NCBI GenBank assembly: GCA_964344305.1
Contig: CAYFMT010000016.1
Coordinates: 622-64,621 of the forward strand
Reading direction: 5' to 3'
DNA length: 64,000 bases
From: an uncultured bacterium
GTDB lineage: Bacteria > Fidelibacterota > Marinisomatia > Marinisomatales > JABMOV01
Notes under the pieces: generated by a model
What the model saw: the letters and a program-made list of their open reading frames with translations, nothing else
The model's database searches: none
Told to the model about the DNA's origin: nothing
Shown here: positions 101 through 38,241 of the stretch, in pieces
Layout of the letters: every line of letters starts with the position of its first letter
Numbering within the stretch: the stretch's first letter is position 1
Position numbers and translations under genes: made by a program

Positions 101-134
101 TGTATGTATTATACTTTTTGGTTGTTTGATTTCA

Positions 135-2294: not shown

Positions 2295-2363
2295 TAATGA
2301 CTCCCCACTAAGAAAAGTGATTTGGAAATTAATCATGAACCCCTGTAATTCAAATCCGTATTT

Positions 2364-5708: not shown

Positions 5709-5730
5709 AGTCCCCACTCGAAAGGTTAAG

Positions 5731-5755
5731 TGCCCCGGGAGCAACCCCGGGGCAT
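5731..5755 (-). terminator. GC-rich stem-loop downstream of the 937-aa gene (no clear U-tract)
   Basis: TGCCCCGGG-agcaa-CCCCGGGGCA forms a 9-bp GC stem. The minus-strand 3' flank is not T-rich, so terminator function is uncertain. Confidence 0.35.
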
Positions 5756-5760
5756 TCGGA

Positions 5761-8574: not shown

Positions 8575-8600
8575 GGGTTATTCCCCTTACTTATGTTATT

Positions 8601-8641
8601 AAAATGGATACGGCACCAATCTCAGTTGGTACCGTATCCAT
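8601..8641 (-). terminator. rho-independent terminator after the BNR-protein gene
   Basis: ATGGATACGGCACC-loop-GGTACCGTATCCAT forms a 13/14-bp stem. It is followed on the minus strand by TTTTAATAAC. Confidence 0.6.
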
Positions 8642-8669
8642 GTGAAACCTTTGAATGTCTGCCCCGGTC

Positions 8670-10670: not shown

Positions 10671-10786
10671 AGTTGCTAACTCCAGTCTATTTAAAAATAT
10701 GCCTTTATAAATTGTCGATGAAAGTAATCTTAAGTCGGGCACATGTCAAGTGCCAGAACTGTAATTAGTGTTTCATGTGACCTGAA

Positions 10787-11918
10787 CCTTAAAATTCGAA
10801 ATTGAGACCGAACTGGTGAGTGGGTTCAATGGTGGAATTACCTACAAATGCATAATCTACCGATAAGGCAGATCCACCAAGCTGGACATTCACTCCACCT
10901 CCTACGGCCATCCCCATGGTATCATGATTCAAATGACTCCCACAACGGATAAATGCAAACTCGCCATATCCATATTCTAATCCAACACTGCCATGCATCA
11001 CATAATCATTGGACTTGATCCCATCCACCGCCACTGTCAGGCGATGAACATCACTCTTGATGAAATGGCTCTCCTTACCCATGATATCATTGGAGACTCC
11101 AATACGGAACGTCAATGGCAATGGGAATGATTCTGTGACCTTATGCAACTGTCCATCAGGATCAATACTGTCAGGTACTGTCTCTACAAGTCCTTCTCCA
11201 TGATACTGTACTTCTGGTCCAAAATTCGTCACACTCATCCCAAGGTTAAATCCATACAAACCTGTGTCAAAGTTTGAACCAATATCAAAAGCCACTCCCT
11301 GCATGTATACCGTATAGATATCATCACGGATATAATCCAAGCTCATGCCGATCTTCAACCTGTCTGTCATTTGACGGGCATACACTATCTTCAGGGATTT
11401 ACTCGATACATTGAACTTCTCCCCTGTCCCATCTGGATACACTTCATTCGTCACATCCATGGGACCACTGTCCAACCAGAACAGGTGAATACCAAAATAA
11501 TCTGAACCGGATAACCGTACACCATAGGCCAGTACATTATGACTGATGCCTACCATATACTCTGTGCGGGAAAAATACGTCTCCATGTTCTTTACATGGC
11601 CCACAGATGCAGGGTTATAGGGAATACCCTGGACACCCCTGCCATTGGACGTGAATGTCCCTGCCATACCGATGGCGCGGGCTCCTGTCTCCAGTTTTAA
11701 GTAGTTCCCTGCTGACTGGGCGACCTTACTCACCACATCTGGAATATCAGGATACTGCCCTAATACCAGTGAAAGAAAAACTGCTGCTGTTATGGATCGT
11801 CGTATACTCATTACCGCACCACCGCAAATTTGCCTACATGTTTCTTGTCATCACTCTCCACCACATAGATATATAATCCCGGCGCTATCTCCTGGTTGTT
11901 CTCACTGCGAAGATTCCA
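10787..11918. repeat. 1132-bp direct repeat, copy A (PorV-like gene plus the 3' 108 nt of the upstream cargo gene)
   Basis: It matches 14015-15146 at an offset of 3228 nt with no difference found. The 340-aa sense ORFs are identical. The 73-aa antisense ORFs are also identical. Spot-checked nucleotide lines match. Boundaries are fixed by the first mismatches at 10786/14014 and 11919/15147. Confidence 0.9.
10789..11811 (-). CDS. PorV/PorQ-family-like outer-membrane beta-barrel, copy 1
   Basis: 340 aa with a signal peptide. The N-terminal motif NYLKLETGARAIGMAGTFTS...IPYNPASVG is typical of PorV/PorQ-type T9SS barrels. The sequence has an alternating beta-strand pattern and ends ...FGLNFEF. 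Its ATG overlaps the upstream stop (TAATG). Confidence 0.7.
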   Translation of the reverse strand: MSIRRSITAAVFLSLVLGQYPDIPDVVSKVAQSAGNYLKLETGARAIGMAGTFTSNGRGVQGIPYNPASVGHVKNMETYFSRTEYMVGISHNVLAYGVRLSGSDYFGIHLFWLDSGPMDVTNEVYPDGTGEKFNVSSKSLKIVYARQMTDRLKIGMSLDYIRDDIYTVYMQGVAFDIGSNFDTGLYGFNLGMSVTNFGPEVQYHGEGLVETVPDSIDPDGQLHKVTESFPLPLTFRIGVSNDIMGKESHFIKSDVHRLTVAVDGIKSNDYVMHGSVGLEYGYGEFAFIRCGSHLNHDTMGMAVGGGVNVQLGGSALSVDYAFVGNSTIEPTHQFGLNFEF

Positions 11919-14003
11919 CCAGAGATTTCCATCAAAATCATTATCATGCTCCAGCGCTACGACTCTTTCACCATAGGCAGTAAATATCTGAATTCTACAT
12001 TTTTGCGGCAGGTGCGTAAACCGAAGCCTTCTTGTATCTGCTGATTCATTAAATGCAGACCGTACAATATATGGATTTGGAACAACAGAAATGGTTTCTA
12101 GCTCATCCTGTGTCACTTCATGAGGTCTTCCAAGAGCAGACATATCAGCAAGCCAACTGTCCCCATCATTAAAGAATTTCTTGGTTTTGATGATGACAAA
12201 ATCGCCATTTCTCCAGGGATAATGAGGTTTCCAAGGGTTCTCATTGATACCATCGCTGTCGTTATCTATAAACTCCTGTGGGGTGATGCTACTTGTAATA
12301 ATTTCGGAAGCACGCCAGATCATTCCTTCATAAGTCACCCTGTCGCCGGGGTTGTACGTAATCCCCGCTGACCAGGCTGTGTCCAGTACAGGGAATGCCA
12401 CGTCATAATTGTACTCTATATACAAATTGTAAGTGGTTTGTGACCTGAGTGTACCACCTACATTAAGTGTGTCTGCCCTGAAGGTCAGTTTTTCATTGGA
12501 TGTCCAATAGCAATCCTGATAGCCAGGATCTGGGTTACTGGGATCCGGGGTTCCGAACAATCCAAGATCAGAATGGAAAATTCCAATTGGTTTTCCAGTA
12601 GTCATATTGGTGATCTTAAACGGCAACTCTGCCTTTAACAATGGAAATTCACCAATACATCCATTAGGTGGAATTGTGGCCAGCACAGTATCAACAGTAG
12701 AAGAAGAAAATTCAATTTTGTAATCAAAACCCGGCTTCAACTGATAGGCATTTGAATTAAAGTACTCCAATTCAAAATTCAGGGCACCAATGACTGAACT
12801 GTCTGCATTCCATTCCAATTCATGAATGGGTGAAAAATCTTCCTCTAAATCGATAATAGATTGAGGAGGATTTTCAAACTTTACTCGAATGCCATCGAAT
12901 ACGGTACTCCAGAAATTCTGTGGACCATTTGTGGGTTGAACAATGGCTTTATAATTAGGAACATACACCGTTCCACCGTTTAATTCCGCGCCCGGGAGAT
13001 TCATCAATGTATCAATGGCACCAGCTGAATAGGCAGTTGTGTCATACCCAATCACGTCCACAGCGCGCTGGGAAACAGAATCATCCACTGCATACACATA
13101 CACATATGGATCTCTATTTGCCATTTCCTCCACAGGGTTGGATGGCAGCCATGCATTCACTTCAAATTTGATAAGATCAGAAACCAGGTCATCCTTATCC
13201 GCAACAAAATAATCTATGGGTCCGTTGCCTGAATTGTTGTCATCAGGAACGATAAAGCTGGAAATATCATCGGGATCGGGAAAAGTAATATTACTTGAAT
13301 TATACCCGGGGATAACGGTAGCAAAGTTTCGGTCGAGATTGCTGGTGCCCAGAGGAGATTCGAGGCTTTTATACCCGTTACCTTCTGCATCTGTAACATA
13401 TCGATCGGGATTGGTTTTCACCCACATGGTATCGGCATCAAAAAATCCATCACCATCTGGATCTGAATATTCAATGGTAAACGTACGCAGGCCCAGATCA
13501 AAGGCTGTAACACAATAGGTGTATTCAATGCCATCAAATACATCTTCATCAATAAACCCATTGGCCAAGCCTGTATTTTCTCCTATTGAATATCGTATAT
13601 TGTACGGATCAGGTCCTGTGTAACTTGTGTCTCGAGTCAATCCATTCCCACAGTCAGTGTAGGAATAAATACAATGATCTTCATCCTCTTCCTGACTGAG
13701 GTCAAATTGTGCATAGGGTCGCCAACCAACAGTGTCCCCGTTGAAATCGTACATAACGTCCGAAGAAGAGCCCCATGTTTTTCCGCCATCGATGCTTCTG
13801 TAAACACGGTACCCCTCAAAATCTGCATAGCCGGTAGCACTATCGATGGATGTCTGTGCAATATTATCCCAGGATACAAATATTTTTCCATGCTCTACAG
13901 TGGCATACAGGGTTGGTGTTTCAGGAGGTGTCATATCGGCAGGATCAATCAGTGTCTGGGACCAACCAAATGATAGCAGTAATAAACCAAGTATTCTTTT
14001 CAT
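11811..14003 (-). CDS. exported 730-aa protein with an FN3-like module and a variant T9SS-like CTD (paralogue of the C-terminal part of the 1029-aa protein)
   Basis: Signal peptide MKRILGLLLLSFGWSQ sets the start at 14003. The module GYADFEGYRVYRSIDGGKTWG is shared with the 15039-18128 product. The CTD is VVPNPYIVRSAFNE...RLRFTHLP...IAPGLYIYVVESDDKKHVGKFAVVR. Confidence 0.8.
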   Translation of the reverse strand: MKRILGLLLLSFGWSQTLIDPADMTPPETPTLYATVEHGKIFVSWDNIAQTSIDSATGYADFEGYRVYRSIDGGKTWGSSSDVMYDFNGDTVGWRPYAQFDLSQEEDEDHCIYSYTDCGNGLTRDTSYTGPDPYNIRYSIGENTGLANGFIDEDVFDGIEYTYCVTAFDLGLRTFTIEYSDPDGDGFFDADTMWVKTNPDRYVTDAEGNGYKSLESPLGTSNLDRNFATVIPGYNSSNITFPDPDDISSFIVPDDNNSGNGPIDYFVADKDDLVSDLIKFEVNAWLPSNPVEEMANRDPYVYVYAVDDSVSQRAVDVIGYDTTAYSAGAIDTLMNLPGAELNGGTVYVPNYKAIVQPTNGPQNFWSTVFDGIRVKFENPPQSIIDLEEDFSPIHELEWNADSSVIGALNFELEYFNSNAYQLKPGFDYKIEFSSSTVDTVLATIPPNGCIGEFPLLKAELPFKITNMTTGKPIGIFHSDLGLFGTPDPSNPDPGYQDCYWTSNEKLTFRADTLNVGGTLRSQTTYNLYIEYNYDVAFPVLDTAWSAGITYNPGDRVTYEGMIWRASEIITSSITPQEFIDNDSDGINENPWKPHYPWRNGDFVIIKTKKFFNDGDSWLADMSALGRPHEVTQDELETISVVPNPYIVRSAFNESADTRRLRFTHLPQKCRIQIFTAYGERVVALEHDNDFDGNLWWNLRSENNQEIAPGLYIYVVESDDKKHVGKFAVVR

Positions 14004-14014
14004 ATTCAATCGTG

Positions 14015-15146
14015 CCTTAAAATTCGAAATTGAGACCGAACTGGTGAGTGGGTTCAATGGTGGAATTACCTACAAATGCATAATCTACCGATAAGGCAGA
14101 TCCACCAAGCTGGACATTCACTCCACCTCCTACGGCCATCCCCATGGTATCATGATTCAAATGACTCCCACAACGGATAAATGCAAACTCGCCATATCCA
14201 TATTCTAATCCAACACTGCCATGCATCACATAATCATTGGACTTGATCCCATCCACCGCCACTGTCAGGCGATGAACATCACTCTTGATGAAATGGCTCT
14301 CCTTACCCATGATATCATTGGAGACTCCAATACGGAACGTCAATGGCAATGGGAATGATTCTGTGACCTTATGCAACTGTCCATCAGGATCAATACTGTC
14401 AGGTACTGTCTCTACAAGTCCTTCTCCATGATACTGTACTTCTGGTCCAAAATTCGTCACACTCATCCCAAGGTTAAATCCATACAAACCTGTGTCAAAG
14501 TTTGAACCAATATCAAAAGCCACTCCCTGCATGTATACCGTATAGATATCATCACGGATATAATCCAAGCTCATGCCGATCTTCAACCTGTCTGTCATTT
14601 GACGGGCATACACTATCTTCAGGGATTTACTCGATACATTGAACTTCTCCCCTGTCCCATCTGGATACACTTCATTCGTCACATCCATGGGACCACTGTC
14701 CAACCAGAACAGGTGAATACCAAAATAATCTGAACCGGATAACCGTACACCATAGGCCAGTACATTATGACTGATGCCTACCATATACTCTGTGCGGGAA
14801 AAATACGTCTCCATGTTCTTTACATGGCCCACAGATGCAGGGTTATAGGGAATACCCTGGACACCCCTGCCATTGGACGTGAATGTCCCTGCCATACCGA
14901 TGGCGCGGGCTCCTGTCTCCAGTTTTAAGTAGTTCCCTGCTGACTGGGCGACCTTACTCACCACATCTGGAATATCAGGATACTGCCCTAATACCAGTGA
15001 AAGAAAAACTGCTGCTGTTATGGATCGTCGTATACTCATTACCGCACCACCGCAAATTTGCCTACATGTTTCTTGTCATCACTCTCCACCACATAGATAT
15101 ATAATCCCGGCGCTATCTCCTGGTTGTTCTCACTGCGAAGATTCCA
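14015..15146. repeat. 1132-bp direct repeat, copy B
   Basis: See copy A (10787-11918). Confidence 0.9.
14017..15039 (-). CDS. PorV/PorQ-family-like outer-membrane beta-barrel, copy 2 (identical to copy 1)
   Basis: The 340-aa product is identical to that of 10789-11811, with the same TAATG overlap with the upstream cargo stop. Confidence 0.7.
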   Translation of the reverse strand: MSIRRSITAAVFLSLVLGQYPDIPDVVSKVAQSAGNYLKLETGARAIGMAGTFTSNGRGVQGIPYNPASVGHVKNMETYFSRTEYMVGISHNVLAYGVRLSGSDYFGIHLFWLDSGPMDVTNEVYPDGTGEKFNVSSKSLKIVYARQMTDRLKIGMSLDYIRDDIYTVYMQGVAFDIGSNFDTGLYGFNLGMSVTNFGPEVQYHGEGLVETVPDSIDPDGQLHKVTESFPLPLTFRIGVSNDIMGKESHFIKSDVHRLTVAVDGIKSNDYVMHGSVGLEYGYGEFAFIRCGSHLNHDTMGMAVGGGVNVQLGGSALSVDYAFVGNSTIEPTHQFGLNFEF

Positions 15147-18128
15147 GAAAACCGCACCCACATTGGGATCATCGTGCTCAATGGTATTCACATATTCTCC
15201 ATTAACGGTGTACACATGAATGGTGGCCTGTTCCGGTAGATTGGTAAACCGGATAGATCGTCTTACTTCTGATTCATTCATTCTGGAATGAACGATATAC
15301 GGATTGGGGACCACATTAACATTGCTCAAATCAACCTGAGGACTGGATCCGGGATACACCGTTACAAAATTGGGATCCAGAATGGTGGTCCCCCGGGAGT
15401 TTTCAATGGATGAATAGCCATGTGGTGTTGACCAGTGATCAGGATTTGCCTGAGACCAGATTGTATCAGGGTCAAATCCGCCCTGATTGCTGTCATAATT
15501 CCAGTCGATGACATAATCCGAATCCACGCCCATATCATAGGCTGTCACTGAGTAGGTATAAGCCAGGCCATCTACAACCTGTGTATCCACCCAATAATAA
15601 TTGTATTCCTTGCCATTGATGACCGTATCCTTGCGAATGGATTCAAATCCGGTGTTCGACCCCAAACTGAACCAGGGTGCATGGGGATCAGGACCTGCCA
15701 CATCACGACCACGTATGTCACCGGAATCACAGGAATCAGGAGCATAGATACAATGGGTAGAATCTTCCTCTACGCTCAAATCATATTGTGCAACAGGTTG
15801 CCAGCCAACATGAATATTTCTATTGTCGAGAATCTTCTTATCCGGTGTTCCCCAGGTGGAACCTTCATCGGTGCTTTTGTAAATCTTGTACCCTTCAAAA
15901 TCCGCATAGCCTGTTACCACATCCTTGGATGCTTCTGCGATATCGTCCCAGTAAAGGGTGACCCTGCCCGTTTCAATGCGCGCAAGTACATTAGGTCTGG
16001 TCGGTGGAGTATATCCCTGGTAATGAGAATTGTACATGATCTGGGCAAACTTTGCATTGGCTTTCAGGTCTTGCTCATTCTGTCCAAATATGATACAAAA
16101 AGAAAATGGTACTTCTTCACCCACCGGGAAATCAAACGGACCACAGCTCATGATCAACACACAGTCCAGTCCATCCGGTGCAAATTCTTCCAATCCCTCT
16201 AGGGAATCAAAATGTGGATTGAGGTTGATATCCAGATCTGTTTCCTCGTTGGGGGTATGGAAATGCCAGGATTTTTCATCGTCTGTTAAATTGGTTGTGT
16301 CTCCGGAAATCACTTTCAATAGAATTTCTTCTTTATTAAGTGCCTGAGGTCTTCCAGGAGCACCAGCGCAGCAGTTTCCATTGCTTTCACCGGTGACTAC
16401 ACCGGGACGATTGTACCAGTCAAACCAGTGCCAGTCCGTCATTTTTAGTTTTTCCCCGGGATAAATATCAACAATCCCATCAAGATTTAAATCCACTTCC
16501 GTGGTGGCCAAAGGTGAATCCAGAAGCTGGGTTGCCACCATCCCCATATCCGTTACACCGTTGCTGTTTCCATCCTTGTCCTCAATGATGGCCATACTGA
16601 CACGTAACAGCTGTCCATTGACCTCGACACAGGGTTCTGTTGTATCTGTCAGACAGTCGTAATATCTCATAAAATCATCTGCATTGGTGTGTGGCCAAAA
16701 GCTACCATTTATATCCGTGGATAATACATCAGCATCCATGTAAAACCCGAGATACACACCTTTATAATCGAATCCCTTGCCCCGGTTCAGCTTGGTACCA
16801 TCAGGCATAATCATTCCTTCATGGGAAACACCATTTTCATCGACCCAGTCGCCGCTTTCATTGCGAACCTGGACTGTGACGAACATGATATCCTCAGCAT
16901 AGGCAACACCGTATGAATGGGCTGCAGACATAACACGAAGCCCCAGTGGATAACCAGTCTGGAGGTACTCATTATTGGTATTCACAAGATTTCCACGGTG
17001 AGCCCATCTGTCATCAAATTCCATATACACATCTGTGTCGGAGATAAAACGTCCTTCAACAGGTTCCCAGCAATCGGGATCTGCACGATTCCCGGTACAA
17101 CCATCAGGCCACTCAGAAGGATCGAGTGCACCCAGATAATCCTCTGCCCACCATCCGGGCCAAAACGCTTCCGTTGCCCCCGTTTCCTCATTCATGCGCG
17201 TGGGCCATGTCTGGGAATAATTGCTGTGAGCAAGCAAAGGATAAGGGTCGTCACTATCGGTGAAAGGTGTATCACCAAATATATCTCCTGCAGAGATAAT
17301 GGTATTGTGTGTATTCTCCCGTGCTTTCGTGGAGGCATGCCAGTCAGTATTATTGCTCGGATTGTAGCGGGTAAACCAGGACTCCAGTGACGTGGCTCCA
17401 TAGAACACATAACGGTCATCTTCTGTCCATTCTTCCTTGTCTTCACCATAATCATAAATGTCAAATTCACTGGTTCGTTCTTTCAAAGCTGGTCGCAAAC
17501 CCCAGGGATATATTAACCCGATACGCGATGTAGACTTGTTTGGGTCTTTTGTGCGTTCTTCAAGTGCCTCAACTCCCAGAAAAATCCGTTCTCCGCCCGG
17601 GTCAATCCCCCACTGGTAAATATTGTCAATAGAAGTCATGGATGTTTTTTCTTCGCCAACAACACCGCGGTCATCTTCATAATCAAACACTATGCCTACA
17701 AACGTTGTATCCCCATCGTCAAACCAGGCATCGTAAGCATCCTCTGAAGCAAACACCTTAATGGTATTGTTATTGGACCCGGGGTTTTCCTGGACTTCGT
17801 CCCAGGTAAACCGGCTGGTATACAGTTGACCTGCTACACCTGCCACAAATCCAACGTGAGGCAGATAGGTGAAATCACCCCAAAGGCCAGCAGGATGTAC
17901 ATCCCAGTCAATATAGTTCCCATAGTTTCCTATGGCGTTTTTAACCTTGCCCTGTAGGAGATACCCGCGAGCACGATCATTCATTGGATTTGTTGGAAAT
18001 GGATGATCCCCAATCCTCTCGGTAGATGATGGGATTCTATGTTGTTCAACATAGTTTTCAGGTTCCCTTGGCTCAGACCCAGAGAGAATCATTGATAAAA
18101 GCGTGAAGGGTATTAAAATTCGTTTCAT
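15039..18128 (-). CDS. exported 1029-aa protein of unknown function with an FN3-like module and a variant T9SS-like CTD
   Basis: Signal peptide MKRILIPFTLLSMILSG. I recognised no catalytic motif. The C-terminal third is homologous to the 730-aa protein (GYADFEGYKIYKSTDEGSTWG). The CTD is VVPNPYIVHSRMNE...IRFTNLP...GKFAVVR. Confidence 0.8.
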   Translation of the reverse strand: MKRILIPFTLLSMILSGSEPREPENYVEQHRIPSSTERIGDHPFPTNPMNDRARGYLLQGKVKNAIGNYGNYIDWDVHPAGLWGDFTYLPHVGFVAGVAGQLYTSRFTWDEVQENPGSNNNTIKVFASEDAYDAWFDDGDTTFVGIVFDYEDDRGVVGEEKTSMTSIDNIYQWGIDPGGERIFLGVEALEERTKDPNKSTSRIGLIYPWGLRPALKERTSEFDIYDYGEDKEEWTEDDRYVFYGATSLESWFTRYNPSNNTDWHASTKARENTHNTIISAGDIFGDTPFTDSDDPYPLLAHSNYSQTWPTRMNEETGATEAFWPGWWAEDYLGALDPSEWPDGCTGNRADPDCWEPVEGRFISDTDVYMEFDDRWAHRGNLVNTNNEYLQTGYPLGLRVMSAAHSYGVAYAEDIMFVTVQVRNESGDWVDENGVSHEGMIMPDGTKLNRGKGFDYKGVYLGFYMDADVLSTDINGSFWPHTNADDFMRYYDCLTDTTEPCVEVNGQLLRVSMAIIEDKDGNSNGVTDMGMVATQLLDSPLATTEVDLNLDGIVDIYPGEKLKMTDWHWFDWYNRPGVVTGESNGNCCAGAPGRPQALNKEEILLKVISGDTTNLTDDEKSWHFHTPNEETDLDINLNPHFDSLEGLEEFAPDGLDCVLIMSCGPFDFPVGEEVPFSFCIIFGQNEQDLKANAKFAQIMYNSHYQGYTPPTRPNVLARIETGRVTLYWDDIAEASKDVVTGYADFEGYKIYKSTDEGSTWGTPDKKILDNRNIHVGWQPVAQYDLSVEEDSTHCIYAPDSCDSGDIRGRDVAGPDPHAPWFSLGSNTGFESIRKDTVINGKEYNYYWVDTQVVDGLAYTYSVTAYDMGVDSDYVIDWNYDSNQGGFDPDTIWSQANPDHWSTPHGYSSIENSRGTTILDPNFVTVYPGSSPQVDLSNVNVVPNPYIVHSRMNESEVRRSIRFTNLPEQATIHVYTVNGEYVNTIEHDDPNVGAVFWNLRSENNQEIAPGLYIYVVESDDKKHVGKFAVVR

Positions 18129-18136
18129 AATTATGC

Positions 18137-21100
18137 CTATTTGAAGTCCACCCTGATAAAGAAGTTGAATTCACGTGGATTACTATACATCCAAGGATTG
18201 TCATAAAATGAACCTGATTTATCAACTTTCTCTGCAGGTAATCCTACTGCATCAGTATAATATTCTCCAGGATCATCTGCCGTACCAGTAAGTGCATAAA
18301 CATCCAATTCATTTCTAATATCAAATGCATTGAAGATGTTCAGACCCATGGACACCTTGAAATCATTCACTATAATGCCTTTCTGGAACATTATATTCGC
18401 CTGTTTAAATGCAGGGGATCTTTTGGTATTTATGTTCTTTTTATCCTCTTCTGGTTTATTACCATTCCAGATAATGGGAGTATAAGGATATCCTGATTGG
18501 TAAAATAGATTCATCCCTGCCGAAACACCAAAAGGAAGAAAAGTATAAAATGAAGCAGCGAAGTCATGTGTTCTATCATATGGCATAAGAAATTCATAGC
18601 TGGGTGCTCCCTTATATTCTTCTCCTAAACTCTTGAAATCATATGCGCTATTTCCTTTTGCAGTGGAATAGGTGTATTGAATCATGGCATGAACAAGCTG
18701 ACCACGGTTTTGAAGTGTAAAGTCGATTCCTTTCGCGCTTCCATAATCCTGGTTGTCAGCCACCTGATAATCATACACGCCGGATCGGCTGTATTTATAC
18801 GTTACCATCTGATCCATGTTTTTTACCCATCCCATGAGTGAAAAGGCCCAGTGACGGGTAAATTGAACATTAAATCCAAATTCATAGGATTGGTTTCTGG
18901 ATGCATTCATGGTTGGATTTCCAAGAGCTCCACCGCTTTCTTCAAACAACGCTTCTGGATCCTGGAGCCTGTTTGTATTTAAAAAGACATTCTGATATAC
19001 TGGAGTCTGATAATAGAGACCATAACTGAATACGAATGTAGATTTATCTGTGATAACATGACTGATACCCAGTCGAGGACTGATCTTATAAAACCACTGG
19101 GATTCATGCATGAACACACGTTCATGGGCAAATCCTGGATTATCGTTCACCGGCTCACCAGAATCCCATTTTCCATTCTGATTTACATCCGAATAGTACC
19201 AAGGCTTATCTGGGGAAAGTCCACCGGTGGAATCAGACCAGATATTGGTGTTATAGTTCACAGCATCCAGTCGAATACCTGCATTCACCACCATCCAGGG
19301 CACTTCGTAGGTGTTCTGAAGATAAATACTAACTTCTTCCGGCTCACGGAAATCATCCCACTTATCATTGCCATTGGCATCCTCAAAATCTTCACCCTTG
19401 TCCCATTGACCATTACTTTCACCAAAATCCGGTCCCTCATATTCTTCATCTGTAGGCAGCAATCCGTCAGGACCTGTGTCTTCCCAATATTCCGCAAAGG
19501 ATTGGACAATGGCTCCATCTGTTCCAAGCCAGGGATTGGTTACTTCGTAGAAATTCAGCTTATGCGATTTGTAATCAAATCCGGTACGCAACCGCCATTC
19601 ATCCGTCATCTGACTTGTTACATCGATTCGGATCTCATTTGTAACGGCACGCGATGTACCATAAAACCTGTCATGACCACCAAAGGCACGACCTTCATCC
19701 CATGATTCACCAAAGCTGGGCATATAGTAGTATGGATTATTCGCCCTGCCGTCGTATCGAGGTCCAAATTGGGCTCCCAGTCCCCAGCCCCACCACGGGT
19801 CTTGTTCATATTGAAGATCAATATGGTGATAATCAAAAAATTTATTCTCGTCATATTCATACATGGAAGGGAACAGCCAGTAGCTTCCATCCCTGTAATA
19901 GGCTTCCTCAACAAACTCTGGACCATCCCATTTGCCATTGCCATTTTGATCATGGTTTGAGTTGAAGCCATCTACACCTACATCAAAAACACCGTTACCA
20001 TCTCTATCATCGAAATCTTCTGCAACTTCCCAGTTATAAATACCTGGAGTGGCACCATAATACCAGCCGGAATTGTCATCCCTGCGCGTGTAGTAAAGTG
20101 TATCACCATTTTGAGAGGTTGTATACGGCACCACGTATGGATTGTATGGATCAGAAATACTTTTGTTCGGACCGGCAGGATATCGCCATTCGTACCAATC
20201 AGGATACCCATCCGAATCGCTGTCTTCCCAGCGAACGCCCTGGAACTGGTCCTGTGTAAACTGGGATAATCTTAGTGTATAAAATAATCGCTTTGTGAGG
20301 GATTGGTTCATCTCAAATGTGTATCGGCGTGTATCACGGAACAGCTCATTTTGTCCATTGTCCCAATAGAGGAACTGGGTCTTAAAGCCTTTCCTGTGGG
20401 CATTCACATCCCAGAAGGATACATTGAATCGTAAGGTGTTTGAATGGCGATAGGCTAATTTTGCAAACACATCGTAAGTTTTGTCAAAACCAAATCCACG
20501 GAATCCCTTTACATTATCCCATGGCTGTACCAGGTTTTCCCTGTTAATGGTATTTGCCGGGTCTTCAGGATTATTTTCGTATGCAATGTCATCAAATTCC
20601 AGTACACGATAGTTTTCACGGTCTGTCCATTGGCCAGAGAACCAGTACGTCAGTTTGTCGAAAAACGGTATTGGTCCACCCAACCCAAGGGTATAGTCGT
20701 TGTATCCACGAAGCTCATCATACTTGTTGCCCAGACCTGCACCCACCATGCTTGTTTCGTACTTGAACTTGTACCGGAAATCTTTTGACCCGGTGGCCGT
20801 GTGCATATTAGAAACAGCGGACATGGCATCACCATACTCAGCGTTGAATCCTCCAGGTTGCCAGTCAAATTCTGCCACGGCAAATAGATTTAAGCGTGTC
20901 CCATTGCCAATACCTCCAAAAATGGGATTTCGTATATACAATCCATCGATCATGTACGCAATCTCACCGGCACGACCTCCGCGGACATGGACTTCTTCCA
21001 GGCCACGTTCTTCATGGTCCGGGATACCGGTTGTCATACTCTCAACACGGACTACACCGGATTGAAGGGAGTACAATTCTGTCAAATCCCTGATTGGAAG

Positions 21101-21520
21101 CGCCTCGATGGCTTCCTGGTCCACAGTGATCTTTTTTGCCGTGTTCCCTTTTTCAACCAGTTCTTTTTGTCCTTCAACAATGATTTCATCACCTTCAATG
21201 GCTGCTATGGGAAGTTTGAAATTCAACCAGACTGTCTTGTCCATGATCACATCAACATCTGTCCGGGTCTGGGACTGGTATCCAATCATCATGACCCTTA
21301 CATCATAATTACCCACAGGAATATTGATAATTATGTAATTGCCATCCAGATCTGCAACAGCTCCCATTCCAAGCGCAGGCAGGTACACCTGAGCACCGGG
21401 GAGCGGATCGCCTTCAATGTCTGTTATTCGACCTCTGATGGTACCATCTGTCCCGGCAAGCGCTATTCCAGTCAAAGTCAGTAAAAGTAGTGGAAGTATA
21501 AATCGTTTCATGTTCTGCAT
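18137..21520 (-). CDS. oversized TonB-dependent-receptor-type outer-membrane protein (CarboxypepD_reg-like domain + plug + barrel) with acidic repeat insertions
   Basis: Signal peptide, then GTIRGRITDIEGDPLPGAQVY...GNYDVRVMMIGYQ (carboxypeptidase-regulatory-like fold). DEIIVEG and a plug-like region follow, then a long beta-rich C-terminal region. Inserted D/N/G/W-rich repeats include DQNGNGKWDGPE, ESNGQWDKGEDFEDANGNDKWDD and DVNQNGKWDSGEP. Confidence 0.8.
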   Translation of the reverse strand: MQNMKRFILPLLLLTLTGIALAGTDGTIRGRITDIEGDPLPGAQVYLPALGMGAVADLDGNYIIINIPVGNYDVRVMMIGYQSQTRTDVDVIMDKTVWLNFKLPIAAIEGDEIIVEGQKELVEKGNTAKKITVDQEAIEALPIRDLTELYSLQSGVVRVESMTTGIPDHEERGLEEVHVRGGRAGEIAYMIDGLYIRNPIFGGIGNGTRLNLFAVAEFDWQPGGFNAEYGDAMSAVSNMHTATGSKDFRYKFKYETSMVGAGLGNKYDELRGYNDYTLGLGGPIPFFDKLTYWFSGQWTDRENYRVLEFDDIAYENNPEDPANTINRENLVQPWDNVKGFRGFGFDKTYDVFAKLAYRHSNTLRFNVSFWDVNAHRKGFKTQFLYWDNGQNELFRDTRRYTFEMNQSLTKRLFYTLRLSQFTQDQFQGVRWEDSDSDGYPDWYEWRYPAGPNKSISDPYNPYVVPYTTSQNGDTLYYTRRDDNSGWYYGATPGIYNWEVAEDFDDRDGNGVFDVGVDGFNSNHDQNGNGKWDGPEFVEEAYYRDGSYWLFPSMYEYDENKFFDYHHIDLQYEQDPWWGWGLGAQFGPRYDGRANNPYYYMPSFGESWDEGRAFGGHDRFYGTSRAVTNEIRIDVTSQMTDEWRLRTGFDYKSHKLNFYEVTNPWLGTDGAIVQSFAEYWEDTGPDGLLPTDEEYEGPDFGESNGQWDKGEDFEDANGNDKWDDFREPEEVSIYLQNTYEVPWMVVNAGIRLDAVNYNTNIWSDSTGGLSPDKPWYYSDVNQNGKWDSGEPVNDNPGFAHERVFMHESQWFYKISPRLGISHVITDKSTFVFSYGLYYQTPVYQNVFLNTNRLQDPEALFEESGGALGNPTMNASRNQSYEFGFNVQFTRHWAFSLMGWVKNMDQMVTYKYSRSGVYDYQVADNQDYGSAKGIDFTLQNRGQLVHAMIQYTYSTAKGNSAYDFKSLGEEYKGAPSYEFLMPYDRTHDFAASFYTFLPFGVSAGMNLFYQSGYPYTPIIWNGNKPEEDKKNINTKRSPAFKQANIMFQKGIIVNDFKVSMGLNIFNAFDIRNELDVYALTGTADDPGEYYTDAVGLPAEKVDKSGSFYDNPWMYSNPREFNFFIRVDFK

Positions 21521-21525
21521 AGACC

Positions 21526-23625
21526 TTATTCCTCAGGTATCATCACACGTTGAAAACCAAATACATGGTTTATCTTATAAGGATCATTTTCAAATTCAGG
21601 CAGGGATTGAAAATCCTGCAATTTCTTTACATGCCTGTCAGTCAGGAAGCGTCCCAGCCTTCCGCTGTTACCTGTTCTCGTAAACTTGCCCAACTCCCAT
21701 TTAGAGATACCGTACCATACTTCATCCTCCCGTTCAAATGGATCGATCCAGTTTTCTAGAGGAAGAGGCTCGGTCCATCGGATGAGTAACTCATCGCGCA
21801 CGATTCCCATATCCCTGGCAAGCCATGTTATATCCCTTGAACCAAATTCAACACCGGTTCCAACCAGAGTCATGGTTAACGTTCGTGTCACCTTGAAGCA
21901 GTCAAAGAATGTTGTATCTGCAGCAGGACATTCAGACGGGTCAGTCACTGCAAGATCTTCGTCTCCATAGCATACCGTGGTACCATTATCATCATAATAA
22001 CGCTTTAACTTTGCCGGACTGGCGACGGTGTCTGCTTCCACCATGAAAGATTTTTCAATCTTGTAGATGGCCACAGAGGTGGTATCAAAATATTCCTCCT
22101 CGATAATCTCCCCATCTCGAAGCTGTCCATTCACTGTAAAGTAAATCACTTCATCCACAATATCATTTGATGCCCAGAAATCAAGTATAAACCCATCTGG
22201 GACAAAATAGGTTGGATGCGTCAACTGATAGATATGTTCGTTTTCCTTAAACAAGAGGTAATCGTAATACCGCTCACCTGTAAAAGTAGTCCAGTCCGTT
22301 TTGGTAATAAAATAGTCACCGCCACTGTTGGAGGGAACATGTTCAATTACTTGGTTAGTGTAGAGTGTCACGAGGGAATCCATGTCATCCACGGTACGAT
22401 CCTGCACATCATCCACCGTTACTGTCTCAATGATTTCTGCATGAGAATTGCCCCATCTGTCAATGATTGAATCTCCCGGTTCAACATGAGCCATAACATT
22501 GGGATTATTCAGGTCTTCCCATGAAACGAGTAGATTGTCCGGTTTCTGAGTCAGGATATATAATTCATTGGATTGTGCTACACCGTCCTCATTCTCATCT
22601 GTAAACTGCTCGGCCGATGAAGATAACCCGTATCCTGTATCGTTAAATGGCTCACCCAGATCATAGACACCATTTCCTTCAAGAGTATCAGCCGTATTGG
22701 GCAATCCATCGAGACCATAATCAAAAAAGTATTCAGCCGTATCCCGTACCCCGTTGCAGTTTCTATCCTGGAAAGGTTCATCGATCTGGTATCCGGGAGT
22801 TCCATTATAATCCAGGAATGCTTCCGCCGGATCCCAGACACCGTTGCCATTATCCATATAGCCTGCATCATCCCATTGACCGTTGTCGTTACAGTCCGTG
22901 CTCAACCTGTGCATGAGCAATTCGCTATTCAATTGTGTTCTTACGGTCTGGAATGTATGGGTGAACGGAATGGTGGAGCTTGTATAGGAATAAGTAGTAT
23001 CCACCCACTCAGACTGATCCACAAACATGATTCCGGATGAAATCAGAGGAGTATCCACAACGGCCTGGTAGGACCGTGAAAGAAGTGTATCAGAATAATG
23101 TACCACAACGGATTGCACACCACCATTGGCTGTTTGCACTTCGTAGCGCATATCTTCCACTTCTATTCCCGGTTCATTATGATTCCAATTGAGAGCTGTG
23201 ATATTGGTATACTGCTGGGACATGATCTCAATGGAATCCTGTAGAATCATTTGCACATCGGGGAGTGTATCAATGCTGCTCCTCTGGGTATAAGCAACAT
23301 CGGATGGTTCAATTTCTGCGAGATATTCAGGGAAATTCTTCAATGTAAGGATAGGGGGTTCCTGTCCAAAGAGTGAAAGATATTCAGGATAGGGTAAATT
23401 ATAGTTTGTGTTATCGAAAATATAAAATTCGGCATTGATGTTGTCAGCAAAGTTGTAGAAATAGGAAGAAATGTTCCCTTCCTTTCCATTCCCAACGGAT
23501 GATTCATTCAATGTATTGGTTAATTCTTCTGTTTCGTCGGTGTTTTCAACCGATTCTTCACAGGCAAAAGAGGTGAATAAAATCACCATTGCAATTGATA
23601 GTGTCTGTAATAATTTCCGAGGCAT
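21526..23625 (-). CDS. lipoprotein of unknown function with acidic NG.WD-type putative Ca-binding repeats
   Basis: The lipobox-type signal MPRKLLQTLSIAMVILFTSFAC sets the start at 23625. Repeats are DCNDNGQWDDAGYMDNGNGVWDPAEAF, DRNCNGVRDTAEYF and EGNGVYDLGEPF. It lies 5 nt upstream of the TonB-type barrel gene. Confidence 0.7.
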   Translation of the reverse strand: MPRKLLQTLSIAMVILFTSFACEESVENTDETEELTNTLNESSVGNGKEGNISSYFYNFADNINAEFYIFDNTNYNLPYPEYLSLFGQEPPILTLKNFPEYLAEIEPSDVAYTQRSSIDTLPDVQMILQDSIEIMSQQYTNITALNWNHNEPGIEVEDMRYEVQTANGGVQSVVVHYSDTLLSRSYQAVVDTPLISSGIMFVDQSEWVDTTYSYTSSTIPFTHTFQTVRTQLNSELLMHRLSTDCNDNGQWDDAGYMDNGNGVWDPAEAFLDYNGTPGYQIDEPFQDRNCNGVRDTAEYFFDYGLDGLPNTADTLEGNGVYDLGEPFNDTGYGLSSSAEQFTDENEDGVAQSNELYILTQKPDNLLVSWEDLNNPNVMAHVEPGDSIIDRWGNSHAEIIETVTVDDVQDRTVDDMDSLVTLYTNQVIEHVPSNSGGDYFITKTDWTTFTGERYYDYLLFKENEHIYQLTHPTYFVPDGFILDFWASNDIVDEVIYFTVNGQLRDGEIIEEEYFDTTSVAIYKIEKSFMVEADTVASPAKLKRYYDDNGTTVCYGDEDLAVTDPSECPAADTTFFDCFKVTRTLTMTLVGTGVEFGSRDITWLARDMGIVRDELLIRWTEPLPLENWIDPFEREDEVWYGISKWELGKFTRTGNSGRLGRFLTDRHVKKLQDFQSLPEFENDPYKINHVFGFQRVMIPEE

Positions 23626-23700: not shown

Positions 23701-26409
23701 ATGAACAACCATCTATCAACTCGAACTGTTGTCTTTGTGACACTTATTTTTTTTCACCTGCTATTTGCAGTGGATGCATCCCCTGAGCGAATTCAATTCG
23801 ATCAACCGGACGGTTCCACATTTTTTGGACATGTCCGTGGAGACGAATGGGCCGGCTGGCATGAATCAGATTTAGGCTTCCCAATCGTCAAGAATCAGGA
23901 TGGCTGGTGGGTCTACGCTTCTGGTGTAGATGGGAATCGATTGATCGGTTCTGGCAGTATTGTTCATGCAACAGATAATGCTGACAACCTGGCTGCAAGC
24001 GGATTTTCACCGTCCCTTCGTCCACAGCGCATTCATCCAATTGTGGATACACCGGTACCCAATCTCAATGCGGTGCGAAGTGACACATTTCTCGTTCCCC
24101 TGCTTTTGGTGAATTTCCCTGATTATCCAAATCAATACGGGGATGATACTTTTGATGATATCATGAATTCAGTTGATACCTATGGCCACCCTAATCATCC
24201 CGGTAGTGGAAGTTTTCGCGATTTTTATCATGAAATTTCTTATGACCAGTTTGATCCCATTTCTACGATTGATGGGTGGTATACCACTCAGCATAATCAT
24301 GATTATTACGGGTATTCAAATGGCTACGATCGTTTACTGCCCATGATTCGTGCACTGGTGGATTCTGCTGAAGCAAATGGTATGGACTGGTCCCAGTTTG
24401 ATAATGATGGTGATGGCACCGTGGATGCTCTGAATATAATTCATGCCGGTCCCGGGGCAGAACAGGGCGATCACAGCAACATCTGGTCCCATAAGTGGTC
24501 CCTTTCTGCTGCAGGGCTTCAGGTTCAATACGATGGTGTATGGATCAACAGTTATACCATGAACCCAGAAATCCAGAGCAATAACATTGTGGCCATCGGG
24601 GTTATTTGTCATGAATTTGGTCATGCATTAGGCCTGCCGGATCTTTATGACACGGATTATTCCTCTACCGGGTCAGGAAAACTGGCGCTTATGGCCAGTG
24701 GATCCTGGGGAACCGCAGGGAATACACCCTGGTATCCTTCTGCCATGAATGCCTGGTGTAAGGCAGAACTGGACTGGGTAGATGTCATGACACTTAACGT
24801 TGACCAGGCTGGTGTAGAGGTGGAACAATCTTATACATCCAATACAGTTTTTCAAGTTGACCATGTCACAGATGATTCAGAATACTGGCTTATCGAAAAT
24901 CGACAAAAAGTTGGTACAGATGTCAATATGCATCGTGCGGGTCTCCTTTTCTGGCATATTGATACAGAAAAAACATCCTCTGGATGGAGACCAAACAATG
25001 ATGAGCCTCATTACGGTGTGGGTCTTGAACAGGCCGACGGAATGTATCATTTAGAAAACAATGGTGGTAGTGATTCCGGTGATCCTTTCCCCGGGGCCAC
25101 AGACAATCGTTCATTCAGCTATAATACTGTTCCTGGAACAGAAAGCTATTATTTTAATCCCTCCATGATATCCATGGACAATATTTCCGACCCGGATTCT
25201 ATCATGACATTTGATCTGACATTTAACGAGTACCTGCTCGCTACCATAGGTGTTGAAAATGGCAGCGGTCCGGCAAATGGAATTGGTTCTTTTGAGCTTT
25301 CTCTGGAAAACGATATGGTCCTCAACATGATGGATTTCGAACTCAATTTTAATCCGGATATTTTCGATATTACGGACGTGGAAGCCATTGGTCGAGCTAC
25401 AGTGGACTCCATAACAGTTTCAGAAAATGTTTTTGAATTGCATAACCCACAAATTGCCATAGGAGACGGTGGGATTATCCGTGTTTTCGTCCAGACTAAT
25501 TCCGGTACAAGCGGATCTTCTGAAGTGTCCTTTGACTGGGTACATGCGGAAGATGATTCCGGGAATGGTATTGGATTCTATCTCGGAACAGGTACCTATA
25601 CTTACACGGCATTACCACAGGTTATCACTGTATCAAGTGATTCAGGAACAGCAGGCAGTTATGGTAAATACTCTGTTTCCCTTTCGAATCAGATACCGAT
25701 AAAGATGTTCCTCATGAACATTGATGATTCACCTGATTACCTCATTCCTTTTGCTGAAGTTTATGACGATAATAATGGGAATGGACAATGGGATGAAGGC
25801 GAATCCTTTCTTGATACCAATCAGGACAGTATGTGGACCCCATTACTGGAACCGACTGACCGAATGGCAGGATGGAATACGAATGTTTCCTATACAGCAA
25901 CGGGAATCCAGGTAGCCGCCAGCACCACTGGAGCTATGGATGTTGGAGACGGTCCCATCTTCTTCATCAACAATGTGATAGATGATAATGCCATTCCCGG
26001 TGATGTAACCATTATTGTTACTCCAACCGTCATGATTGATGAGTTTGGTAACTCGGAATTATCCATTGATGTTTCTCCTGGAGTGTTTACCGTTCTTCCA
26101 GCACTTGGGAATGATCACAGCATGACGTTGCCAGAAAAGGTCTCAGTGTCGTCGAATTATCCCAACCCGTTTAATCCCAGTACGTCCCTCGATTTTACGC
26201 TGCCTGAAGATTCACGTATCTCTGTAAAGATTTATGATATAACCGGCAAAATGATTTTTGACCATGAGGAATCCCATTCACCAGGTCGGTATCAATTTAC
26301 CTGGTATGGGAAAGATCGTGCAGGTAATGCGGTGTCCAGTGGCATATACTACTTGACATTTACCGCTGACGGTTTTCAGAAGACACAGAAAATCATGCTC
26401 TTGAAATAG
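23701..26409 (+). CDS. M6-family (immune inhibitor A-like) zinc metalloprotease with cohesin-like modules and a T9SS C-terminal sorting domain
   Basis: The HEXXH site is VICHEFGHALGLPDLYD, in the M6/InhA-like context (NIWSHKW...). The CTD is SNYPNPFNPSTSLDFTL...GIYYLTF...QKIMLLK. Confidence 0.85.
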   Translation: MNNHLSTRTVVFVTLIFFHLLFAVDASPERIQFDQPDGSTFFGHVRGDEWAGWHESDLGFPIVKNQDGWWVYASGVDGNRLIGSGSIVHATDNADNLAASGFSPSLRPQRIHPIVDTPVPNLNAVRSDTFLVPLLLVNFPDYPNQYGDDTFDDIMNSVDTYGHPNHPGSGSFRDFYHEISYDQFDPISTIDGWYTTQHNHDYYGYSNGYDRLLPMIRALVDSAEANGMDWSQFDNDGDGTVDALNIIHAGPGAEQGDHSNIWSHKWSLSAAGLQVQYDGVWINSYTMNPEIQSNNIVAIGVICHEFGHALGLPDLYDTDYSSTGSGKLALMASGSWGTAGNTPWYPSAMNAWCKAELDWVDVMTLNVDQAGVEVEQSYTSNTVFQVDHVTDDSEYWLIENRQKVGTDVNMHRAGLLFWHIDTEKTSSGWRPNNDEPHYGVGLEQADGMYHLENNGGSDSGDPFPGATDNRSFSYNTVPGTESYYFNPSMISMDNISDPDSIMTFDLTFNEYLLATIGVENGSGPANGIGSFELSLENDMVLNMMDFELNFNPDIFDITDVEAIGRATVDSITVSENVFELHNPQIAIGDGGIIRVFVQTNSGTSGSSEVSFDWVHAEDDSGNGIGFYLGTGTYTYTALPQVITVSSDSGTAGSYGKYSVSLSNQIPIKMFLMNIDDSPDYLIPFAEVYDDNNGNGQWDEGESFLDTNQDSMWTPLLEPTDRMAGWNTNVSYTATGIQVAASTTGAMDVGDGPIFFINNVIDDNAIPGDVTIIVTPTVMIDEFGNSELSIDVSPGVFTVLPALGNDHSMTLPEKVSVSSNYPNPFNPSTSLDFTLPEDSRISVKIYDITGKMIFDHEESHSPGRYQFTWYGKDRAGNAVSSGIYYLTFTADGFQKTQKIMLLK

Positions 26410-34128: not shown

Positions 34129-34147
34129 TCCTCCAGGGTAAATCAGG

Positions 34148-36676: not shown

Positions 36677-36677
36677 G

Positions 36678-38235: not shown

Positions 38236-38241
38236 ACTCAG

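Follow-up and report, generated by a model that had tools for sequence, protein, structure and literature searches.

Variant type-A C-terminal domains and PorV/PorQ-family barrels in a conserved Marinimicrobia operon with a TonB-type barrel

The operon and its exact direct repeat

We analyzed a stretch of 64,000 nucleotides (nt) from an uncultured bacterium of the Marinimicrobia (SAR406, Fidelibacterota; contig CAYFMT010000016.1, positions 622 to 64,621), which is referred to below as the window. The subject of this analysis is an operon of six minus-strand genes in which two exported proteins with an unusual C-terminal domain (CTD), of the kind found in type IX secretion system (T9SS) substrates, are each followed by a gene for an outer membrane barrel. 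In transcription order, the operon encodes a predicted lipoprotein of 699 amino acids (aa) with a conserved Cys22 (LIPO, 21526..23625), a 1127-aa TonB-dependent-receptor-like outer membrane protein (TBDR, 18137..21520) composed of a CarboxypepD_reg domain, a Plug domain, and a long C-terminal region presumed to form the barrel, a 1029-aa exported protein (C1, 15039..18128), a 340-aa barrel of the PorV/PorQ family (copy 1, 14017..15039), a 730-aa exported protein (C2, 11811..14003), and a second copy of the 340-aa barrel (copy 2, 10789..11811). C1 and C2, referred to below as cargos, both carry a signal peptide and a variant CTD that resembles type-A T9SS signals (15042..15320 in C1 and 11814..12092 in C2, both on the minus strand).

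A previous reading of this DNA, based on the sequence only, had described a six-gene minus-strand operon with junctions of -1 to 13 nt. The six open reading frames (ORFs) were confirmed within the window, and the gaps between them were reproduced exactly, namely, 5, 8, -1, 13, and -1 nt in transcription order. Both cargo/barrel junctions have the sequence GGTAATGAG, so the TAATG overlaps that had been reported, in which the last A of the TAA stop codon is the A of the ATG start codon, are indeed present. Overlaps of the TAATG or ATGA type are common in related loci but not universal, since some relatives have gaps of ~15-69 nt, as estimated from tblastn match starts. The overlaps in the window are consistent with the translational coupling and the 1:1 stoichiometry that were proposed, but in view of these wider gaps strict coupling is at best presumed. 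A promoter and terminator scan of the operon was uninformative, as the counts were at or below the shuffled expectation.

The two barrels are 100% identical in sequence and lie inside an exact direct repeat of 1,132 bp. Copy A of this repeat (14015..15146) comprises the final 108 nt of C1, the complete barrel gene, and 2 nt past its stop codon, and copy B (10787..11918) comprises the corresponding 108 nt of C2, the whole second barrel gene, and again 2 nt past the stop codon. The repeat thus takes in the final 36 codons of each upstream gene, and outside its edges the identity drops at once to ~50-66%. There is no third copy in the window. Two other ORFs of 340 aa (258-1280 and 33193-34215), considered as further barrels, proved to be unrelated to the barrel. 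The proposal that each cargo has its own dedicated barrel is therefore wrong at the protein level, because the two genes have one and the same product.

In a metagenome assembly, an exact repeat of kilobase length is a reason for suspicion, and polishing can homogenise near-identical copies, which raises the question of whether the duplication is an assembly artefact of a genome that contains a single cassette. We regard this as extremely improbable. Two independent MEGAHIT contigs (k127) deposited at ENA under project PRJEB17505, both matching the window at 100%, give the A-R, R-B, and B-R junctions to the base, where R is the repeat: contig L004, on which the TBDR-like and 1029-aa genes are located, breaks off after exactly 127 nt of the repeat, and contig L085 (2,350 nt, found in 4 samples) consists of a 2,096-nt unique spacer with the 730-aa gene and 127 nt of the repeat at each end. 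This break pattern is the signature of a genuine A-R-B-R-C graph. Furthermore, two different upstream genes, C1 and C2, run into the repeat, and the same two-copy layout is found in a single-cell genome (L065), in a metagenome-assembled genome (MAG) whose name points to long-read data (L007; the copies differ at 1 of 1,047 nt), and in a polished contig of 870 kb (L090; 100% identity across 1,044 nt). Homologous recombination between the two exact direct repeats would delete the 730-aa gene and one barrel gene, leaving a C1-barrel cassette.

The encoded proteins and the tie between tail and barrel

The 340-aa barrel matched the NCBIfam model of the PorV/PorQ family (NF033709) with 143 bits at a cutoff of 90 (E=1.6e-41), and the alignment covered residues 33-340 of the barrel and positions 2-326 of the 326 positions of the model. 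Its scores were far below the cutoffs of the equivalog models. The best of these was PorQ (NF033711; 62.1 bits vs a cutoff of 220), followed by PorV proper (NF033710; 43.3 bits vs 250, with only the N-terminal half aligned) and PorV2 (32 bits, far below the cutoff). The NCBIfam scan returned no match to the PorP/SprF family. A search of the PDB with the single barrel sequence gave no match, but a profile of 21 barrels from related loci retrieved PorV of Flavobacterium johnsoniae (6h3i_F) with an E value of 2.1e-23 and nothing else of meaning; no FadL or BamG chain appeared at E<=10. The Pfam family PF19572 (PorV) matched 17 of these 21 barrels, the window barrel itself being without a Pfam match. 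A BamG identity for the barrel was rejected, because neither the BamG model nor a BamG chain in the PDB matched; a distant barrel paralogue (L069, 3200-4237) scored 20 bits against the BamG model, for which the cutoff is 250. Judged by these profile searches, the barrel is a member of the PorV/PorQ family and not a generic FadL or BamG protein, in agreement with the PorV/PorQ-type assignment made in the sequence-only reading.

The CTDs of C1 and C2 differ from those encoded around them. An M6 (immune inhibitor A-like) metallopeptidase on the divergent side of the operon (23701..26409, plus strand) and four proteins encoded downstream (1344..10742, minus strand), namely, a 690-aa protein, a 937-aa InhA-like MAM protein, an 1126-aa S8 peptidase with an FG-GAP propeller, and a 330-aa protein, all carry canonical type-A CTDs of the form PNPFNPxT...KxxLLK that score 33-45 bits with TIGR04183. 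The tails of C1 and C2 instead follow the pattern VVPNPY[IV]...LPxxCxIxI[FY]T...WxL...PGLYIY...GKFAV[VI]R, the C1 tail reading VVPNPYIV...GKFAVVR. With TIGR04183, for which the cutoff is 23, C1 reached 18.8 bits as a whole protein and 25.2 bits as an isolated tail, and C2 gave no match as a whole protein, so that this model is marginal for the variant tail. Of 19 variant tails, 16 matched the type-A CTD (TIGR04183/PF18962) at E<0.01, and hhalign aligned the variant tails with the canonical tails of the same genomes at a probability of 96.5% (E=7.6e-10) over 61 columns that cover the core only, the terminal motifs being different (VVPNPY vs PNPFNP and GKFAVVR vs KxxLLK). By these alignments, the variant tail is a distinct subclass of the type-A CTD and homologous to canonical type-A CTDs, which bears out the earlier statement that the cargos carry a variant CTD. 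The type-B signature was not reached, as CHU_C matched C2 only, with 18.3 bits at a cutoff of 27. The idea that the tails are specifically PorU- or PorZ-like was dropped, because the canonical cargos of the window match the models of PorU and PorZ over the same C-terminal model regions.

The variant tail is strongly associated with the barrel. For this comparison, we inspected every ORF with a length of at least 250 aa and sufficient room downstream in the loci that were retrieved. A PorV-family barrel was encoded directly downstream of 41 of the 71 ORFs with a variant tail, whereas this was the case for none of the 70 ORFs with a canonical tail. The variant tail also precedes PorV-family barrels in a second type of operon (L051, described below), in L069, in an "FCB group" MAG (L086), and in L087. 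An analysis of co-variation between CTD and barrel gave no usable signal, since in most loci the two tails are ~42-64% identical whether the barrels are identical or have diverged to ~42%; lower tail identities (23-28%) were seen in three loci where the C2 tail has an insertion. For annotation purposes, a protein that ends in GKFAV[VI]R can be expected to have a PorV-family barrel encoded directly downstream in more than half of the cases.

This association also bears on the question of whether the 340-aa ORFs encode ordinary channels of the FadL/OmpP1 type for hydrophobic compounds, and their position beside CTD proteins is without functional meaning. PorV itself lies within the FadL superfamily, 8 of the 21 family members weakly match the Pfam family Toluene_X, and the window barrel lacks a Pfam match. 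Such a channel would have to pass the PorV/PorQ family model, retrieve PorV alone in the PDB profile search, be tied to one CTD subclass (41/71 vs 0/70), overlap the stop codon of its upstream neighbor with its start codon, and occur once, behind a single gene, where the two cargos are fused (see below). We therefore consider this explanation very unlikely, and a generic FadL/OmpP1 protein devoid of a PorV/PorQ signal is not what the hidden Markov model and PDB profile searches returned.

The two cargos share only part of their sequence. In C1, the signal peptide is followed by an N-terminal region that is conserved and all-beta (residues ~85-705), by an FN3-like module (707-927), and by the CTD (937-1029). 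Its homologues across the Marinimicrobia are 53-77% identical and lack a Pfam domain, and 4,711 representatives match C1 at E<=1e-3. Outside the tail, C1 had no match in Pfam, NCBIfam, or the PDB, the last of which was searched with the single sequence and with a family profile, and Pfam and NCBIfam scans of 24 distant C1 relatives returned CTD-type matches only. The AlphaFold2 model of C1 had a mean confidence (pLDDT) of 61, and its Foldseek matches were limited to the FN3 module and the CTD. In C2, the signal peptide precedes an FN3-like module (25-233); a middle region of the beta-sandwich type (~235-625), which weakly matches CBM_5_12, and the CTD (638-730) follow. The protein was modeled as a chain of beta-sandwich domains (pLDDT 81.8, pTM 0.75), for which Foldseek retrieved only generic chains of immunoglobulin (Ig) or FN3 domains at template modeling (TM) scores of ~0.1, with no propeller or enzyme fold. 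C1 and C2 are 43% identical over 224 aa in the FN3-like module and 63% identical over 104 aa in the C-terminal domain. The description of the 730-aa protein as a paralogue of the 1029-aa protein holds for these two parts, but the remainder is unrelated.

As stated in the sequence-only reading, the 1127-aa protein contains CarboxypepD_reg (60.5 bits) and Plug domains, the latter being marginal (24.4 bits vs a cutoff of 23.9). Its N terminus matches the N-terminal region of SusC/RagA with an E value of 1.8e-10, and fragments of the TBDR homologue in L087 match PF00593 and PF14905. A TonB-box-like sequence, GDEIIVEG, was noted by eye between the N-terminal domain and the Plug. In LIPO, the signal peptide ends with FTSFA immediately before C22, and the cysteine is followed by the acidic stretch CEESVENTDETEE. 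A longer form with a start at an ATG at position 23712 is possible; the Cys22 of the 699-aa form does not vary among 28 homologues, the consensus being C-E-E-P, which supports the 699-aa start and a lipoprotein with an acidic N terminus. Except for a weak DUF3108-like match, LIPO had no SusD, Pfam, NCBIfam, or PDB match, profile searches included. LIPO carries repeats of the NGxWDxxE type and the TBDR carries NGxWDxGE inserts. Among the window ORFs of at least 150 aa, the pattern NG.[WYF]D..E (NGQWDKGE, NGVWDPAE, NGQWDEGE) occurs only in the TBDR, LIPO, and the M6 peptidase, where it is found 3, 2, and 1 times, respectively. To judge from its sequence, it looks like a Ca-binding loop and might be a shared interaction or folding module.

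Conservation and concerted evolution in Marinimicrobia

To place the operon in its phylum, we used a synteny set of 80 species-level Marinimicrobia loci from GTDB species representatives. The TBDR gene was located directly upstream of C1 in 41 of these loci (canonical loci), 27 contained orphan C1 paralogues, and 12 were too short to tell. In the canonical loci, the TBDR and C1 genes are separated by a few nt, and LIPO is kept upstream in 36 of the 41; beyond LIPO, the M6 peptidase was found in 20 and clpX in 11. The InhA-like and S8 neighbors also follow the operon in L002, L086, L088, and L090. The gene order is hence conserved in related genomes. The median identity to the window was similar for ClpX (62%), C1 (61%), the TBDR (60%), and the barrel (55%), and lower for the M6 peptidase (50%), LIPO (39%), and the middle region of C2 (37%). 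The contig terminates no more than ~450 nt from the end of C1 in 21 of the 41 canonical loci, as would be expected of a repeat at which short-read assemblies break. The exact 1.1-kb repeat breaks such assemblies systematically at this locus, which is a warning for assemblies.

Four layouts were distinguished. In the first, the two barrels are at least 98.6% identical in DNA (the window, L002, L005, L007, L009, L025, L033, L065, L083, L084, and L090). In the second, the two barrels have diverged to ~42% and form two orthologous groups in one clade (L014, L016, L020, and L048). In the third, a single barrel lies between C1 and C2 (L006, L008, L015, and L069), so that there is one barrel for two cargos; these loci, together with the 27 orphan C1 paralogues that have no adjacent barrel, are a further argument against a dedicated barrel per cargo. 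The fourth layout consists of a fused C1+C2 protein of 1428-1466 aa, followed by one barrel (L088, 10001-15325, and L089, 6192-11676). In these fusions, the order is N-domains, FN3, C2 middle region, and CTD. The number of barrels thus roughly tracks the number of cargos: split cargos usually have two barrels and the fused cargo has one. The trio of TBDR, CTD protein, and barrel recurs in L051, L086, L087, L088, and L089.

The tree of the barrels shows that near-identical copies cluster by genome. Of the 15 two-barrel loci examined, the window included, 10 had barrel copies that were at least 98.6% identical in DNA, and L090 was the eleventh such locus. The barrels of these loci are only 52-72% identical to the window barrel, and for the relatives as a whole the range was 44-85%. 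The combination of near-identical barrels within a genome and a far lower identity to the window barrel indicates, on the sequence comparisons, that the barrel pair is under concerted evolution. In L026, the closest relative of the window, the two barrels are 77% identical in DNA. The window barrel is 85% identical to that of cassette 2 of L026 and 80% identical to that of cassette 1, and the shared tail in the window is identical to the C2 tail; since tail and barrel are both nearer to cassette 2 of L026, the last conversion copied cassette 2 onto cassette 1. The start of a conversion tract always falls within the 3'-terminal part of the CTD-coding sequence, 22-110 nt upstream, and its end coincides with the barrel stop. 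The locus is a clean case of concerted evolution in a pair of outer membrane protein genes, and the lineages that have escaped homogenisation are natural controls.

We propose that the ancestral unit consisted of the TBDR, one long CTD protein, and one barrel, an arrangement seen in L086 and L087, which are more distant. In Marinimicrobia, the cargo would then have been split into C1 and C2 when the segment from FN3 through the CTD to the barrel underwent a partial tandem duplication, after which the two barrel genes may have been homogenised repeatedly by gene conversion, with cassette 2 as the probable donor in the window.

A second type of operon was found in L051 (329-9827, minus strand). 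It encodes a choice-of-anchor-J CTD protein, a 991-aa TBDR, a 1147-aa protein with a variant tail, and a 346-aa barrel of the PorV/PorQ family that is 25% identical to the window barrel, and it adjoins an orphan C1 paralogue. This operon type is also present in L034, L040, L044, L052, L059, L072, and L079. The orphan C1 paralogues occur in loci between L031 and L082 (27 of the 80 GTDB loci; e.g., L053, 9989-13171, and L051, 9989-13156). They are 54-57% identical to the window copy and have the same variant tail, with no TBDR or barrel as a neighbor. Two or three copies are present per MAG, for which contamination of the MAGs is a possible explanation.

As to the remainder of the window, its edge cuts the 5' end of a bacterial 16S rRNA gene (1-103, minus strand; Rfam RF00177, 66.6 bits). 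An ArsP-type permease fused to a heavy-metal-associated (HMA) domain (26414-27649, plus strand) separates the M6 peptidase from clpX; these two are direct neighbors in L001, L002, and L003. The region 34148-43478 (minus strand) encodes a second CarboxypepD_reg/SusC-like TBDR (846 aa), a 1002-aa protein with a weak match to aminopeptidase N (M1), and an oxidative-stress trio of iron superoxide dismutase, thioredoxin reductase, and peroxiredoxin. An aerobic respiration cluster (50027-62587, plus strand) contains alternative-complex-III-like genes (4Fe-4S, NrfD, ActD), followed by genes for cytochrome c oxidase subunits II and I and a UbiA-family prenyltransferase.

Possible function and relation to known systems

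Several known systems provide a framework for interpreting the operon. On leaving the translocon, a T9SS substrate is bound to its cognate carrier barrel (PMC10994853). Type-B substrates use alternative carriers, PorP-like partners, that subsequently anchor them (PMC10994853, PMC9143113), and PorU and PorZ are anchored by PorV and PorQ, respectively, via CTDs that are retained (PMC12365241, PMC10202324). The statement in the sequence-only reading that only type-B cargos have private partners is consequently too strong, because the PorU-PorV and PorZ-PorQ complexes involve type-A-like CTDs (PMC12365241, PMC10202324). Given these precedents, the pairing of a CTD with a PorV-family barrel is not without precedent.

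The interpretation that we favor, and on which we are evenly divided, is that C1 and C2 are surface-anchored cargos with a variant CTD, that the barrel is their cognate T9SS carrier and anchor, and that both serve a TonB-dependent surface complex. By analogy with PorU-PorV, PorZ-PorQ, and the type-B CTD/PorP-SprF pairs, the divergent type-A CTD (VVPNPY...GKFAVVR) would be recognised by the PorV/PorQ-family barrel encoded directly downstream rather than by PorV molecules of the general pool. After docking at the T9SS translocon and binding the CTD, the barrel would depart together with its cargo, and it would then stay as a non-covalent membrane anchor, the CTD remaining uncleaved. Proteins of the PorV/PorQ family contact substrate CTDs via their extracellular loops and dock at the lateral gate of SprA; for the window barrel, the case for such binding is indirect and comes from the gene association of CTD and barrel. 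The overlapping stop and start codons and a barrel number that tracks the cargo number could supply the carrier in step with the cargo. Once anchored, C1 and C2, together with the lipoprotein and its acidic N terminus, may decorate the co-transcribed 1127-aa TonB-type barrel as substrate-capturing partners; the recurrence of the trio in two paralogous operon families and in distant loci speaks for a joint action of the anchored proteins and the TonB-type barrel. The resulting complex would be a SusD-independent counterpart of the SusCD "utilisome." The conserved flanking M6, InhA-like, and S8 peptidases, presumably secreted by the T9SS, suggest that the substrate may be peptides or proteins; being based on genomic context, protein or peptide acquisition is the weakest step of this proposal. 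The surface capture and uptake machine suggested in the sequence-only reading is plausible as a putative function.

A number of observations weigh against this interpretation. SprA, PorK, PorL, PorM, PorN, and PorU were not found in the window, so that the case for T9SS dependence comes from the CTD and the PorV-family barrel. The barrel domain of the TBDR was not detected by Pfam in the window protein, and no TonB, ExbB, or ExbD gene was identified among the annotated neighbors. The N-terminal 700 residues of C1 show no recognisable fold or ligand-binding family, and the C1 model is poor (pLDDT 61). The resemblance of the tails to PorU and PorZ is not specific, as canonical cargos match the same model regions. 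Furthermore, 30 variant-tail ORFs lack an adjacent barrel, of which 26 are orphan C1 paralogues and 4 are C2 proteins in one-barrel loci; the pairing of CTD and barrel is thus not obligatory in cis. Lastly, the ClpX-like conservation of the TBDR, C1, and the barrel is unusual for nutrient uptake and may equally point to a role in envelope biogenesis or in the T9SS machinery.

One such role would be that of a Marinimicrobial T9SS attachment complex, with C1 acting as PorU together with a PorV-like barrel and C2 as PorZ together with a PorQ-like barrel, that processes the surrounding canonical type-A cargos. The architecture and the protein sizes run in parallel, since a large CTD protein followed by a PorV-family barrel is accompanied by a ~730-aa CTD protein and a 340-aa barrel. 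The best equivalog of the barrel is PorQ (62 bits; the model has 335 positions), C1 and the barrel are conserved at a housekeeping level, the locus is inside an island of canonical type-A cargos, and PorV and PorQ likewise hold CTD proteins, namely, PorU and PorZ (PMC12365241). We nevertheless consider this role unlikely. C1 has no peptidase C25 match in Pfam, and the PorU model (NF033707) matches its CTD only (model positions 991-1076 of 1095), with 20.2 bits at a cutoff of 420. The C1 model is essentially all beta, and its Foldseek match to PorU (6za2) had a root mean square deviation of 22 A and a TM score of 0.07, at a model pLDDT of only 61. The PorZ model (NF052228) also matched in the CTD only, with 17.7-22.9 bits at a cutoff of 260 (17.7 bits for C2), and C2 is a beta-sandwich chain instead of a double propeller, its model having a TM score of 0.13 with PorZ (5m11). 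Cys662 of the SCGPF motif in C1 is not conserved in distant homologues. In addition, there are two to three C1 paralogues per MAG, many of them without barrels, C1 and C2 occur fused, and none of the known attachment complexes is linked in this tight manner to a TBDR and a lipoprotein.

A second role compatible with strong conservation would be a housekeeping structure of the envelope, either a surface layer or coat or an accessory of outer membrane biogenesis like the BamG/BamH canopy, with the TBDR-like protein being structural. The TBDR, C1, and the barrel match ClpX in their degree of conservation, the operon has a fixed chromosomal position beside clpP-clpX-tig, C2 gave weak Foldseek matches to S-layer and multi-Ig surface proteins, and the BAM complex of Bacteroidota holds an extracellular protein via BamG, a barrel of the FadL family (PMC12611786, PMC12578637). 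Yet the window barrel has no NCBIfam match to BamG, its family profile retrieves PorV and no BamG chain in the PDB, and BamH is a lipoprotein and not a CTD protein (PMC12611786). The matches of C2 are generic, with TM scores of ~0.1, and an N terminus with Plug and CarboxypepD_reg domains is the signature of a SusC-type transporter. We deem this alternative improbable, to much the same degree as an attachment complex.

Comparison with the nearest known systems shows in which respects a barrel-anchored surface complex, the interpretation favored here, would differ from them. The genes porU and porV are adjacent. Like PorU-PorV and PorZ-PorQ of Porphyromonas gingivalis, in which a CTD protein is held by a 14-strand barrel of the PorV/PorQ family (PMC12365241, PMC10202324), the window operon has two pairs and a PorQ-sized barrel of ~340 aa. 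In contrast to these complexes, C1 has no C25 sortase domain and C2 has no propellers; the pairs in the window share one barrel protein and are co-transcribed with a TonB-type barrel and a lipoprotein; and the cargo has multiple paralogues and fusions and belongs to Marinimicrobia, not Bacteroidota. The SprB-SprF pair of F. johnsoniae is similar in that a CTD subclass has a private carrier and anchor barrel encoded directly downstream (PMC9143113, PMC10994853), but the CTD in the window is a divergent type A and not type B (CHU_C 18 vs 27 bits; hhalign to type A 96.5%), and the barrel belongs to the PorV/PorQ and not the PorP/SprF family. With SusC/SusD utilisomes and RagAB, the operon has in common a TonB-dependent barrel with a CarboxypepD_reg extension, co-encoded surface accessory proteins, and flanking secreted hydrolases. 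It differs from them in lacking a SusD/RagB homologue, in that its accessories are CTD proteins presumed to be anchored by a barrel and not by a lipid, and in that the lipoprotein, which has no known fold, is encoded ahead of the TBDR. As for BamG-BamH, the window barrel has no match to the BamG model (NF053685) at E<=0.01 or to a BamG structure, and its partners have CTDs and not lipid anchors.

We found no paper on a Marinimicrobia T9SS or on the window operon in the searchable literature, nor a published assignment of the architecture, in line with the earlier statement that no named system has this layout. The components themselves are of known kinds, namely, a PorV/PorQ-family barrel, a type-A-derived CTD, and a SusC-like N terminus with a Plug, and a cognate barrel for a retained CTD is precedented. 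According to the same literature, what is new is the CTD subclass with its statistical coupling to a downstream PorV-family barrel, the joining of CTD/barrel pairs with a TonB-type barrel and a lipoprotein in an operon found across a phylum other than Bacteroidota, the way in which the two barrel genes evolve in concert, and the fusion proteins of the Rosetta-stone type.

A bolder extension of the favored interpretation is possible, although we doubt it more than we credit it. The VVPNPY...GKFAVVR tail and its barrel would represent a third class of T9SS signal and carrier beside type A/PorV and type B/PorP-SprF, widespread in FCB phyla other than Bacteroidota, that plants large surface proteins onto TonB-dependent transporters. 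It would amount to a barrel-anchored utilisome for phyla that lack SusD, near-essential in SAR406, with two identical carrier copies maintained by recurrent gene conversion to match the number of cargos.

Marinimicrobia are abundant ocean heterotrophs that are almost entirely uncultured, and most of the species-level genomes sampled contain this operon, which is conserved at about the level of ClpX and has no annotation. If the favored interpretation is true, the cognate carrier principle would reach beyond Bacteroidota and cover a type-A-derived signal, and the T9SS would be linked to TonB-dependent uptake, connecting two hallmark systems of the FCB group.

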